From: Candidatus Doudnabacteria bacterium
GTDB lineage: Bacteria > Patescibacteriota > Doudnabacteria > UBA920
Assembly (NCBI GenBank): GCA_016218585.1
Contig: JACRDK010000004.1
Location: 21,347 to 85,346 of the forward strand
Reading direction: 5' to 3'
DNA length: 64,000 nucleotides
Position 1 is the stretch's first letter, and each line of letters begins with the position of its first letter. Positions 2,963 through 33,311 of the stretch are shown piece by piece. A program made the position numbers and the translations under genes. The notes under the pieces were generated by a model. It searched no databases. It was given only the letters and a program-made list of their open reading frames with translations, and was not told where the DNA came from.

Positions 2963-3061
2963 AATTTTACTAAATACTAATTGTTTACTAATATGCTAAT
3001 CTTGATGAATCGTAAGTGAATTGTGTTATTTTGTAAGCAGAAATTCGTGCTTCGTAAAGTT

Positions 3062-4292: not shown

Positions 4293-4418
4293 ATCTTTAC
4301 TAAATACTAATTGATACTAATATACTAATCATTAAATGTTGGGTAATCTTTGAGAGTAAGAATTCGTATATTCGCCTGCCTGCCGGTAGGCAGGTACAAA
4401 TTCGTACTTCGTAAAGTT
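4293..4418. repeat. Intergenic repeat family R2 (ACTAAT and GAATTCGTA words). Copies also lie at 2963-3061, 3257-3318 (partial), 5378-5483, 5901-6020 and 7373-7482
   Basis: CTTTACTAAATACTAATTGATACTAATATACTAAT...AGTAAGAATTCGTATATTCG[P20]TACAAATTCGTACTTCGTAAAGT. Confidence 0.85.
4375..4394. repeat. 20-bp perfect palindrome P20, CCTGCC(T)ACCGGCAGGCAGG; other copies at 7439-7458, 13399-13418 and 24476-24495
   Basis: Exact copies. Two are inserted into R2 copies (R2 at 5378-5483 lacks it), one is inside the partial tRNA-Leu copy, and one is upstream of tuf. Confidence 0.85.
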
Positions 4419-5377: not shown

Positions 5378-5483
5378 ATCTTTACTAAATACTTATTGAT
5401 ACTAATATACTAATTTTAATCTAAAAGGTAATTTATGGAAGTAAGAATTCGTATATTCGTACAAATTCGTACTTCATAAAGTT

Positions 5484-5900
5484 TTAACCTTGCTTTTCTT
5501 TAACTAAGAATCTGGATTTTACCGGAAGTTTGTAGCTGGCTAATCTCATAGCTTCCTGGGCCTGCTCTCTGGTCACCCCGTCCATTTCAAATAAAATCTT
5601 GCCTTTTTTTACAACTGAAACAAAGTGGTCAACAGCACCTTTACCGCCACCCATAGGGCTTTCGTTTCCGTGGAGGGTAACCGGTTTGTCGGCAAATACG
5701 CGGATCCAAATTTTACCGCCTCTTTGCACATAGCGAGTCATAGCGCGGCGGGCTGCTTCAATCTGACGAGCGGTAACCCAGCTGCTTTCCATGGCTTTTA
5801 AGGCAAAGGTGCCGAAAGCGATTTGTTCGCCGGCGGAAGCCTGTCCTTTAGTATGACCGCGGTGATGTTTGCGGTGTTTTAACTTTTTCGGGATAAACAT
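5484..5900 (-). CDS. rplP: 50S ribosomal protein L16
   Basis: MFIPKKLKHRKHHRG N-terminus. Confidence 0.9.
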   Translation of the reverse strand: MFIPKKLKHRKHHRGHTKGQASAGEQIAFGTFALKAMESSWVTARQIEAARRAMTRYVQRGGKIWIRVFADKPVTLHGNESPMGGGKGAVDHFVSVVKKGKILFEMDGVTREQAQEAMRLASYKLPVKSRFLVKEKQG

Positions 5901-7372: not shown

Positions 7373-7482
7373 ATTACTATATTTACTAAATACTAATTTT
7401 AAATGGTTTAAATTTTGGAATAAGAATTCGTATATTCGCCTGCCTGCCGGTAGGCAGGTACAAATTCGTACTTCGTAAAGTG

Positions 7483-13033: not shown

Positions 13034-13459
13034 TTGAATTTGCCTTTCTTTCGGAGAATCGGATTGTCGGAGAATCGGAAATAAAGTTTTGGCTTAATTT
13101 TCCGACTTTCTGATTTTTCTGATTTTCCGGGTTGCCCGAGACCCCCTCATCACTAATGCTTATCGATAAGGCATCAGTGCCGAGGGTATCTCTTTCTTTC
13201 CTTACGGAATCCAGGGCATTTGATTAATTAATTTTTACCCGCCTTAAGCTCGAAAGCTTTGGTTAGGGCTAGAACTTATTTTAAAGATATTTTGCCTTGC
13301 TGTCAAACAGCATAATGTGATACTGATATACAAATACATTCGGATGATACTGATAATACCGATTCGCTCTTTGTCAGTTTGTCAGTATCTTTATTAACCC
13401 TGCCTACCGGCAGGCAGGCGTATTATCAGTATTCAAATCTGTATATCTGCATCATAGCT

Positions 13460-24229: not shown

Positions 24230-24453
24230 AAGTGTATTATTTACTTAAAAAGTCTATCAAATTTATGGCCCTAACGCAAACCTCCTATAACAATTCACTT
24301 TTCTGATGTTTGCCGTAGTCTGCCGATTTATCGGCCATGCAACACGGTTATAGCCTGATAAATCAGGCAACTACGACTACGACACCTTTAGGATACACCC
24401 TTGAGCCTTTACGGGTAATTTCTTTTCTGCTAAAATAAATTAGTTTTCAATTC

Positions 24454-24506
24454 GGCCGAGTGGTGGAATGGCAGACCTGCCTACCGGCAGGCAGGCACAA
24501 ACGACT
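24454..24506 (+). pseudogene. Partial duplicate of the tRNA-Leu 5' half (acceptor, D-arm and 5' anticodon stem), interrupted by the 20-bp palindrome
   Basis: GGCCGAGTGGTGGAATGGCAGAC + CTGCCTACCGGCAGGCAGG + CACAAACGACT are identical to the 5' half of the intact tRNA at 24759. Confidence 0.75.
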
Positions 24507-24520
24507 AATCTGTATAATAT

Positions 24521-24808
24521 ATGTACACAGTTTATGCTATAAGTAGCTTAACTAAGAATTACATATACGTAGGTCTAACAGATAATATTCTCAGGAGATT
24601 TACTCAGCATAATCAAGGCTGGGTAAAAACAACAAGAAGCTATAAACCTTTTAAGCTCTTATATACGGAAAACGTTCCTAACCGTATATCTGCTAGAGCA
24701 AGAGAGAAATACTTAAAGAGCGGCATAGGAAAAGAATTTTTAAAAAGTTTATTGATAAGGCCGAGTGGTGGAATGGCAGACACAAACGACTCAAAATCGT
24801 TCGCTTAA
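24521..24808 (+). CDS. GIY-YIG domain (URI-type) endonuclease, about 80-95 aa; the 3' end runs into the tRNA-Leu gene
   Basis: YTVYAISS...YIYVGLT...RRFTQHNQG...KLLYTE...REKYLKS motifs; TATAAT sits 4 nt before the ATG. Confidence 0.7.
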   Translation: MYTVYAISSLTKNYIYVGLTDNILRRFTQHNQGWVKTTRSYKPFKLLYTENVPNRISARAREKYLKSGIGKEFLKSLLIRPSGGMADTNDSKSFA

Positions 24809-24842
24809 CGGCATGAGGGTTCGACTCCCTCCTCGGCCACCA
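24759..24842 (+). tRNA. tRNA-Leu (anticodon CAA), type II with a long variable arm
   Basis: Acceptor GGCCGAG/CTCGGCC, anticodon loop CTCAAAA, T-arm GAGGGTTCGACTCCCTC, CCA. Confidence 0.8.
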
Positions 24843-24870
24843 AAAAACATCCCTATAACAGGGATGTTTT

Positions 24871-25398
24871 TTAATGGAGAACAATTGGCCAAATCCAACC
24901 CATCGCTACCCAGGCTGCGAGCAATCCCACCAGCCAGCCGGCTAAAATGTCCGAAATATAATGATACCCCAATACAATTCTGGACAGCCCATTAAAAATG
25001 GCAATAATTATTATTACCCCACCAAGCAACGGAAAAAATATAACCAACGGGGCCGCGATTGAAGCAAAACTCGCAGCATGATCAGAAGGAAAAGAATTAT
25101 ATCTCGCGGTGATATTAGAAAACAACCAGGCATTATGAGGCGGCACAAAATTTAACTTTTGGTACGGACGCTGCCTCTTATAAACCAAAAAAACCAGCGG
25201 ATTAATTATAATCCTCGCCAAAACAAAAGACACCAGCAACAAAATAAGTTCTTTATATTTTCCTAAAACTAAAAGATACAATCCGGCGGCGTAAATTAAC
25301 AACAGTGAATAAAGGCCAAAAAATACAACAATACTTTTCAGCATGGAATTTTCTTCCAGCTTTTTATGCCAACTCAAATATGTTTTATTGGATATCAT
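24871..25398 (-). CDS. PAP2-family membrane phosphatase; start uncertain
   Basis: KRQRP, PSDH and SRxxxxxHxxxD motifs. Confidence 0.7.
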   Translation of the reverse strand: MISNKTYLSWHKKLEENSMLKSIVVFFGLYSLLLIYAAGLYLLVLGKYKELILLLVSFVLARIIINPLVFLVYKRQRPYQKLNFVPPHNAWLFSNITARYNSFPSDHAASFASIAAPLVIFFPLLGGVIIIIAIFNGLSRIVLGYHYISDILAGWLVGLLAAWVAMGWIWPIVLH

Positions 25399-32861: not shown

Positions 32862-32897
32862 AGGTTTATTATTAATCGTAGTCTGCCGATTTATCGG

Positions 32898-33311
32898 CTA
32901 TTCGTAAAACTTTTTAAATTCCACAATTTCCTGAGTTGGATTTTTTAAAATGTATTCCCTAATCTTATTCAAAGCATTTTCGTTTCTAATAATATGCTCA
33001 TAATAATTTGGCTGCCAGATAAACTCTTCCAGCGCATGCGATACTTTTGCCTTAAACCTCCTAACAATCTCACCTAATTTTAACGTTGACGATTTTAGGA
33101 CAAAGATAATATGGACATGGTTCGGCATAATAACATAGAGATCTAGTTCTAACCCTTCGGTCTTACTCACCAAATCTCTTAGTTCACGTTCAACTTCTTT
33201 TTCTTTATCTTTAAAATAATTTAATCTTAAATCGGTAACTATGGTCACAAAATAATAACCGTTTGACCCATAATCATATTGCTTAAGTCTAATGTGTTTT
33301 AAATTCCTCAT
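32898..33311 (-). mobile_element. tnpA: IS200/IS605-family Y1 (HUH) transposase TnpA or RAYT-like, with flanking hairpins
   Basis: YYFVTIVT...PNHVHIIF motif. A hairpin CGTAGTCTGCCGATTTATCGGC lies at 32877-32898, and GCCGATGAATCGGC at 33325-33340. Confidence 0.75.

Follow-up and report, generated by a model that had tools for sequence, protein, structure and literature searches.

Single-domain GIY-YIG nucleases that work with short hairpin repeats have been described as the Ssn nucleases, which bind the hairpin repeats (NTS/SRM) flanking their own gene and cut single-stranded DNA (ssDNA) at a set distance (PMC11893778). SsnA of Neisseria meningitidis modulates transformation (Chenal et al. 2025, PMC11893778), and the authors of that study remarked on the likeness of the gene and repeat pair to an insertion sequence and to REP/RAYT (PMC11893778). 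Here we looked at a 64,000-nucleotide stretch of contig JACRDK010000004.1 from Candidatus Doudnabacteria bacterium (assembly GCA_016218585.1, positions 21,347 to 85,346 of the forward strand), which as a whole is called the window, and in which a GIY-YIG nuclease gene and a 20-nt palindrome that we call PAL are found in the transcription unit of tRNA-Leu(CAA). We think it probable that the two form a selfish module that lives in tRNA-Leu transcription units, made up of the gene for a nuclease of about 78 amino acids and PAL as its companion hairpin. The Ssn proteins are likewise single-domain GIY-YIG nucleases of about 80–95 amino acids, compared to a core of 78 amino acids with no extra domain in the window, and the Ssn gene is likewise flanked by a hairpin-forming inverted repeat (about 20–30 nt) that is also dispersed without the gene. 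The family described here differs in being tied to tRNA-Leu and to partial tRNA duplications, whereas the Ssn paper never mentions tRNA (PMC11893778).

Other known systems share parts of this arrangement. The I-TevI/Seg homing endonucleases have the same GIY-YIG fold, a site in or next to a conserved host gene, and both occupied and empty alleles, but the window nuclease has no DNA-binding domain and no intron and comes with a companion palindrome. The target of the I-TevI/Seg enzymes is kept by splicing or by intergenic insertion, whereas here the tRNA is kept whole through duplication. Tyrosine-integrase islands and prophages also restore their tRNA target with a duplicated segment and leave a partial copy at the far end; in contrast, the window insert is about 300 bp long with no integrase, the family duplicates either the 5′ or the 3′ part, and the displaced tRNA copy is broken by a palindrome. 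Short hairpin repeats are spread in trans from one enzyme gene in REP/BIME-RAYT and in the single-strand "peel and paste" system of IS200/IS605, as we propose for PAL, and IS200/IS605 and REP-RAYT insert without target-site duplication as PAL does. These systems differ in using HUH/Y1 transposases and covalent intermediates, whereas the sole open reading frame (ORF) of the module encodes a hydrolytic GIY-YIG enzyme, and also in the mobile unit, which for PAL would be a bare 20-nt palindrome. The solved structures nearest in sequence and fold to the window protein are those of the UPF0213/YhbQ type and the nuclease domain of Slx1. Slx1 differs in having an additional RING domain and an Slx4 partner, and we know of no tRNA or palindrome association for either group.

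Our best reading is that the module would work most like the Ssn/hairpin-repeat pair and REP/RAYT, and that its target logic would be shared with homing genes and tRNA islands. It is not a demonstrated member of the Ssn, homing, integrase-island or REP/RAYT systems, since the SRM motif fails (see below) and it has no DNA-binding domain, integrase or HUH transposase. No description of a bacterial GIY-YIG/tRNA-Leu association or of the PAL sequence was found in the literature searched, and searching it for GIY-YIG together with tRNA-Leu, a palindrome or a duplication turned up only mitochondrial genome papers and the Ssn paper. The pairing of nuclease and palindrome does not seem to have been described before. 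Compared to an earlier reading of this locus (the original prediction), the present analysis adds a role for the palindrome, a mirrored 3′ layout in the family and a biochemistry that is likely Ssn-like.

The window locus and its empty and occupied relatives

The neighbouring ParB gene was used as an anchor, and 19 metagenome loci (L numbers denote individual loci) were examined. Two of them, L081 and L084 (ParB 85% and 81% identical), have an identical tRNA-Leu(CAA) straight after a TGnTAnAAT promoter with no fragment, PAL or ORF, and eight more distant relatives are also empty; the window arrangement is therefore an insertion. L100 is an occupied sister allele with an ORF 81% identical to that of the window, and reads promoter, tRNA nucleotides 1–22, nested PAL, tRNA through the anticodon, an ORF with its own TAG stop, three bases and the intact tRNA. 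Both the empty and the occupied sites that the original prediction suggested comparing among relatives are on record. L083 is identical to L100 at 143/143 upstream bases and has no ORF and no PAL, retaining a 12-nt copy of the tRNA start and 44 nt before the intact tRNA, and is a deleted form of the occupied allele. The 44-nt remnant resembles the end of the L100 element weakly (15/17, p about 0.06). The gene has been gained and lost, and the insertion is polymorphic. Since the sister lineage L100 is occupied at the same site, at about 81% protein identity, the window copy is old and vertically inherited.

The order in the window is promoter, tRNA nucleotides 1–23, PAL, tRNA nucleotides 24–33, ORF, complete tRNA and terminator. 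The ancestral tRNA promoter found by promoter scan (24408..24436, plus strand; TTTACG, 17 nt, TAAAAT with an upstream TG) now lies 5′ of the tRNA fragment. The TGnTAnAAT box is directly 5′ of the intact tRNA in L081, L084 and L088, and 5′ of the fragment in L100 and L083. With the ancestral promoter upstream of it, the fragment is the original 5′ end of the gene. This displaced piece of tRNA-Leu(CAA) (nucleotides 1–23; 24454..24476, plus strand) aligns as an exact copy of 24759–24781, a direct repeat at 100% over 23 nt; chance alone would give a 64-kb sequence about 6e-5 pairs of exact 23-mer repeats. The rest of the fragment, nucleotides 24–33 (ACAAACGACT; 24497..24506, plus strand), is also a direct repeat. 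The original prediction was right that the 5′ copy is exact, and its length of about 45 nt has to be corrected to 33 nt (23 + 10), as the 53-nt span includes the palindrome. The 20-bp palindrome said to interrupt the copy is present at 24476..24495 (CCTGCCTACCGGCAGGCAGG), as a near-palindrome with a single A.C mismatch and a register that is ambiguous by 1 nt, one mismatch away from the family consensus CCTGCCTGCCGGCAGGCAGG. Its site is the junction of the D-loop and the 3′ D-stem in the tRNA fragment, with no base gained or lost, and as DNA it is predicted to fold as a hairpin.

The nuclease ORF (24521..24808, plus strand) lies between the two tRNA copies, and its identification as GIY-YIG was borne out by a Pfam PF01541 match (59.4 bits against a cut-off of 22.6, E 4e-16), with the first 78 residues forming the domain (conserved core 24521–24754). 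As had also been seen before, the reading frame runs into the tRNA: there is no stop codon before the tRNA, and a TAA inside it ends the frame and leaves a 17-amino-acid tail. A TATAAT was thought to precede the ORF by 4 nt; the ATG is actually 2 nt after this hexamer (24513–24518), which is unlikely to be the ORF promoter because it is so close to the start codon and was not listed by the promoter scan. The intact type II tRNA-Leu(CAA) (24759..24842, plus strand) was called by both ARAGORN and Rfam (56.3 bits), in agreement with the original prediction. Its sequence is the same (100%) as that of the tRNA in L081 and L084, the empty-site relatives, and it is presumably functional. A terminator hairpin (CATCCCT/AGGGATG) with a T run follows 3′ of the tRNA (24848..24872, plus strand), identified as an inverted repeat and not listed by the consensus terminator scan. 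The entire insert is 305 bp with one ORF.

A further reading is that there is no element here, and that the locus is an assembly artefact, the remnant of an integrase island, a tRNA intron, or a split or permuted tRNA. Partial tRNA duplications are typical of integration sites, and tRNA-Leu genes host group I introns in cyanobacteria, both of which speak for such an explanation. However, the same layout recurs in dozens of independent assemblies, which excludes an assembly error; no integrase is present in an insert of only 305 bp; and Rfam over the window gives tRNA alone, with no other family and no intron. We reject the split or permuted tRNA that was offered earlier as an alternative, since the downstream copy is a complete tRNA with the same sequence as in the empty-site relatives. 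The recurrence across assemblies, the Rfam result and the complete tRNA together refute the idea that no element exists, and we give it next to no credence. An element that brings its own tRNA along as cargo was also rejected for the window, as there is no displaced 3′ piece of the tRNA downstream. As for similar 5′-half duplications at other tRNAs, which had been suggested as something to look for, the window holds no partial copies of its other three tRNAs.

Two further observations concern the surroundings of the locus. In a comparison with L081, L084, L090 and others, most relatives have PAP2, tRNA-Leu and parB in this order on one strand, and the promoter-tRNA-terminator unit (24408–24872 in the window) is inverted between PAP2 and parB in the window, L083, L088 and L100, with the inverted unit of L088 carrying no element. 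Between parB and the tRNA promoter the window also has an insert of about 115 nt (24305–24420) that forms a long imperfect hairpin (−37 kcal/mol, z −3.8) with TTTTCTG on either side. L083 and L100, which can otherwise be aligned, do not have it, 22 nt of it recur at 32877–32898, and it is probably another small hairpin repeat family.

Association of the nuclease family with tRNA-Leu

With one genome scanned per species, 236 relatives came up, and the best 80 loci were analysed. Their proteins are 58–74% identical to the window ORF and their hosts are Bacteroidota, Ignavibacteriota, Balneolaceae, Saccharibacteria, Paceibacterota, Doudnabacteria and one gammaproteobacterial bin. A same-strand tRNA-Leu directly adjoins the gene in 73 of the 80 loci. 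In 37 of them it is downstream of the gene (layout A, the window type), in 31 it is upstream (layout B), and 5 have one on either side. Of the 7 loci without an adjacent tRNA-Leu, four are cut off by the end of the contig and in one the tRNA is masked. All five leucine types (CAA, CAG, GAG, TAA and TAG) are represented among the adjacent anticodons, and 85/117 tRNAs found in the 80 loci are tRNA-Leu. Insertion is specific for tRNA-Leu.

Layout A loci have a 5′ piece of the neighbouring tRNA upstream of the ORF, and layout B loci have a 3′ tRNA piece downstream of the ORF, often together with a copy of the terminator. Duplication of the 5′ rather than the 3′ part, which had been put forward as the distinguishing trait of the element, does not characterize the family, as the 31 layout B loci duplicate the 3′ part with the ORF downstream. 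Most pieces are exact copies of part of the adjacent tRNA, down to acceptor and anticodon stems that are specific to a lineage, and 6 loci, chiefly of the candidate phyla radiation, have a piece of another tRNA-Leu. Because the piece is usually identical to the neighbouring host tRNA, it looks locally generated and not carried in. The original prediction of a mobile GIY-YIG insertion that keeps its tRNA through a duplicated segment is upheld by the empty relatives and by the 73 loci with an adjacent tRNA-Leu, while the imported "replacement segment" that went with it is not supported, since the piece usually matches the host tRNA. PAL breaks one of the two tRNA copies and the other remains whole, and the host would retain a working tRNA.

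Tandem arrays of two to four ORF units are found in L008, L024, L049, L058, L063 and L071. Conserved tRNA clusters are occupied at differing positions, as seen with Thr-Leu(GAG)-ORF-Leu(CAG) in L011, L034, L061 and L077 versus Thr-Leu(GAG)-Leu(CAG)-ORF in L012 and L062, and with Gly-Leu(TAA)-ORF versus Gly-fragment-ORF-Leu(TAA).

Across 37 sequences of the family there is no variation at residues Y5, Y16, G18, R26, H30 and E62, which include the catalytic residues (two Tyr, Arg, His and Glu), or in a C-terminal KSGxGK motif, and all are present in the window ORF. An AlphaFold model of the window protein (predicted local distance difference test, pLDDT, 87) shows the GIY-YIG fold (beta-beta-alpha-alpha-beta-alpha). 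Among solved structures, 1zg2, 1ywl and 6sei come closest in sequence and fold, at a marginal sequence similarity (E about 0.08), and the fold neighbours are UPF0213 protein BH0048, Slx1 and the catalytic domain of I-TevI. Neither Pfam, the 78-amino-acid core nor the structure model gives the nuclease a second or DNA-binding domain. The protein resembles I-TevI and the models of group I intron endonucleases weakly (16.2 bits against a cut-off of 56 for TIGR01453), and NCBIfam, PHROGs and PADLOC gave sub-threshold matches only.

An exhaustive search for the family gave 368 clusters (50% identity) at E ≤ 1e-10 and 4134 at E ≤ 1e-3. Of 70 representatives whose gene calls are extended, at least 39 have translated tRNA-Leu or PAL in the extension (LPAGRQ, PACRQA and AELVD are examples). 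Gene models frequently run on over the tRNA fragment and PAL (proteins P0002, P0013 and P0121–P0270), producing false N- or C-terminal peptides of translated tRNA-Leu such as AEWWNGRPAYR, LPAGRQ, PACRQA and AELVDALDSKSS. The association with tRNA-Leu therefore reaches well beyond the 80 loci. A plasmid search found no homologue of the nuclease, and the few phage homologues found (43% identical, Rhizobium phages) do not adjoin tRNAs, so there is no support for a phage or plasmid vehicle.

The ORF family evolves under purifying selection, with a median ratio of nonsynonymous to synonymous substitution (dN/dS) of 0.13 over 30 pairs. This is also what a domesticated host gene would be expected to show, one that is co-expressed with tRNA-Leu and serves, for example, in recombination or in the control of incoming ssDNA like Neisseria SsnA, with the tRNA fragments as by-products. 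The long vertical persistence between the window and L100 agrees with domestication, and SsnA provides a precedent in that it modulates transformation (PMC11893778). However, close relatives with the same tRNA do not have the gene, the insertions take varied positions in the same tRNA cluster and include tandem arrays and decayed copies, and the spread across phyla is patchy, at 60–74% identity. Domestication seems improbable to us on this evidence, and we continue to favour a selfish module.

Two more distant GIY-YIG genes were observed beside tRNAs. In L009 a second, divergent gene (612–952, 38% identical) is located downstream of the same tRNA-Leu(GAG) and is followed by other hairpins (CCTGACGTTGCC..GGCAAGTCAGG, GCTGAGCG..CGTCAGC) and a 3′ tRNA fragment, which suggests that sister families exist, each with its own hairpin. 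In the Doudnabacteria-like L091 (2923–3355, reverse strand), tRNA-Pro(GGG) is followed after 125 nt by a GIY-YIG gene (37% identical), beside which neither PAL nor an obvious tRNA fragment was seen.

The PAL palindrome in and outside tRNA genes

PAL is found no more than 130 nt from the ORF or ORF array in 61 of the 80 loci, 33–72 nt 5′ of the start codon in layout A and shortly 3′ of the stop codon in layout B. The family consensus reads as a perfect 20-nt palindrome, conservation does not extend into its flanks, and of 82 copies 33 are perfect. The same sequence is seen across phyla and is conserved more strongly than the protein. The palindrome that the original prediction described as interrupting the tRNA copy is no incidental interruption; it is a conserved 20-nt element that accompanies the gene and also inserts alone.

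PAL insertions are precise and produce no target duplication. For 58 PALs both flanks could be mapped on the local tRNA, and 49 of these are exact insertions with no base duplicated or lost. With stricter mapping, 39 of 40 PAL insertions are in tRNA loops or at loop edges, and the recurrent positions are D-loop 14/15/16, the junction of the D-loop and 3′ D-stem (the window type), the T-loop and the edges of the anticodon loop. The tRNA remnant that separates PAL from the ORF side is most commonly exactly 7 nt long, and it measures 6–10 nt in 25 of 55 cases. The 7-nt remnants (GGCGGAA, GTGCGGG, GGTTCGA, CGCGCTA and others) come from differing tRNA positions and from unrelated lineages, and a mode of 7 nt would agree with cutting at a constant distance from the hairpin.

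The window contains 4 PAL copies where 0 are expected, three of them away from the nuclease gene. Solo copies are found at 4375..4394 (CCTGCCTGCCGGTAGGCAGG), within a 61-nt intergenic repeat, at 7439..7458, in a second copy of the same repeat, and at 13399..13418 (CCTGCCTACCGGCAGGCAGG), beside the 3′ arm of a long inverted repeat. A third copy of the 61-nt repeat (5440..5487) is a paralogous empty site from which exactly the 20 nt of PAL are missing, and this pair of filled and empty paralogues agrees with insertion free of target-site duplication. PAL can insert without an ORF nearby, being at the same point in two copies of the intergenic motif AAGAATTCGTATATTCGTACAAATTCGTACTTCGTAAAG and absent in one. 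The motif itself was observed at 4357–4417, 7421–7481, 5440–5487 and 3041–3061, just 3′ of successive minus-strand ORFs.

PAL also inserts into PAL and into other tRNAs. Where the window carries one PAL, L100 (3020–3066) has a nested pair, CCTGCCTACCG[CCTGCCTGCCGGCAGGCAGG]GCAAGGCAGG, in which the second PAL is in the apex of the first. Tandem or nested PALs were also observed in L069 and L012. The viral contig L126 (2239–2330) has a phage-type tRNA-Met(CAT) with PAL in the variable loop, and since ARAGORN still calls this tRNA, at 92 nt, PAL may mimic a long variable arm. A decayed PAL-bearing copy of tRNA-Met that has also lost part of its T-arm is found in the viral contig L103 (8573–8650). 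In a third viral contig (L133, 495–880), a 43% identical GIY-YIG gene is located at a tRNA-like sequence that is not tRNA-Leu, in the order TCCCCGGTAGCTCAGTTGGTA, PAL, GAGCGGTTGGCT, ORF and a second copy of the same 5′ part. PAL is again at the D-loop/D-stem junction of the duplicated piece, ARAGORN calls no complete tRNA there, and the habit may extend beyond tRNA-Leu. Among other viral contigs, we observed a tandem array of at least ten 21-nt PAL-like units (..CGGCAGGCAGGC / CCATGCCTACCG..) in L135 (3916–4124) and dispersed PALs, 4–6 each, in several more (L122, L124).

Proposed mechanism and its meaning for the family

We propose that the ancestral unit would have been promoter, tRNA-Leu(CAA) and terminator, and that after insertion the old 5′ part would persist as a broken spare copy of the tRNA. 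The distance from the stop codon to the tRNA start in layout A is only 0–30 nt, which suggests that the nuclease message would form the 5′ leader of the pre-tRNA, with the tRNA promoter driving its transcription and RNase P setting it free. Loss of the stop codon in the window would then yield a message without a stop. By analogy to the Ssn nucleases, the enzyme would recognise the PAL hairpin, probably in ssDNA, and may cut a short fixed distance from it, with the 7-nt mode in support. Such breaks could drive recombination between the tRNA-Leu direct repeats, leading to pop-out, re-integration or gene conversion into other tRNA-Leu genes, which would copy or move the cassette and spread PAL. 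Only the products that retain an intact tRNA would survive.

Several results weigh against a self-moving module of this kind. A terminator is often present between the tRNA and the ORF in layout B, so read-through from the tRNA promoter is not general, and the window copy itself may be decaying, its stop codon being lost. The SRM pattern (HGTCWY..YYVSBRH..WNVSBRG..RNCYNB) overlaps 0 of 86 PALs (4 from the window and 82 from the loci). In a PAL-anchored sample of viral contigs a GIY-YIG gene is near only 1 of 68 PALs, and the linkage is therefore one-sided, strong from gene to PAL and not from PAL to gene, such that another mover is possible; one-sided linkage of this type is also seen with REP or NTS repeats. 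The idea that PAL favours hairpin loops fits the four window sites and the tRNA copies and fails a controlled test, as 51 non-tRNA sites gave 31% versus 32% in controls, which is not significant, and we treat it as conjecture. A post hoc test for the boundary of loop and 3′ stem at these sites gave 10/51 versus 11% (p = 0.07). As for the chemistry of mobility, we infer PAL binding or cutting of tRNA-Leu DNA by the nuclease, and the origin of the local tRNA duplication fits no known GIY-YIG reaction.

A rival reading is a classical free-standing homing endonuclease, which would cut the double-stranded, unoccupied tRNA-Leu gene and have double-strand break repair from an occupied allele copy the nuclease gene with flanking tRNA pieces. 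PAL would then be an unrelated miniature repeat that settled in the dispensable tRNA copy, or would serve to destroy the site of the enzyme there. Presence and absence at an identical target, a strict target family in tRNA-Leu and tandem re-insertions are all consistent with homing, as are viral-contig PALs that are mostly without the gene and the weak similarity to I-TevI and group I intron endonuclease models; the few recurrent tRNA positions of PAL could mark a cleavage site. However, characterised GIY-YIG homing enzymes need a DNA-binding module and this protein is a catalytic domain of 78 amino acids alone, with a TIGR01453 score far below the cut-off (16 versus 56). In addition, the occupied allele keeps an intact and cleavable tRNA next door, and a palindrome that accompanies the gene in 61 of 80 loci and is conserved above the protein is hard to explain as an unrelated hitchhiker. 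We consider homing of this kind unlikely, though likelier than domestication, and retain the selfish module with its companion hairpin as the probable explanation.

A bolder form of this reading can be put forward tentatively, and we would not call it probable. PAL may be the smallest known mobile DNA, a bare 20-nt hairpin cut-and-pasted or copied precisely into ssDNA by a hydrolytic single-domain GIY-YIG nuclease, with tRNA-Leu genes as a safe harbour across phyla and a module that makes its own landing pad from a spare tRNA. If true, PAL would move by a mechanism akin to transposition that needs no transposase and no integrase, and the large Ssn-like nuclease families would gain a natural role in driving the spread of hairpin repeats.

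For annotation, the tRNA fragment and the palindrome are being translated as false extensions of the protein, PAL-bearing copies can mislead tRNA finders, and the current label of "GIY-YIG nuclease family protein" masks the family. A compact nuclease with a 20-nt hairpin site is also a possible tool, as has been proposed for the Ssn enzymes. The precise and repeated 20-nt insertions provide a natural record of how short hairpin repeats (REP, NTS/SRM and similar) spread. The module would add a widespread kind of selfish element, with at least 368 clusters (50% identity) in Bacteroidota, Ignavibacteriota and the candidate phyla radiation, and it gives single-domain GIY-YIG nucleases beyond Neisseria a testable biological role.

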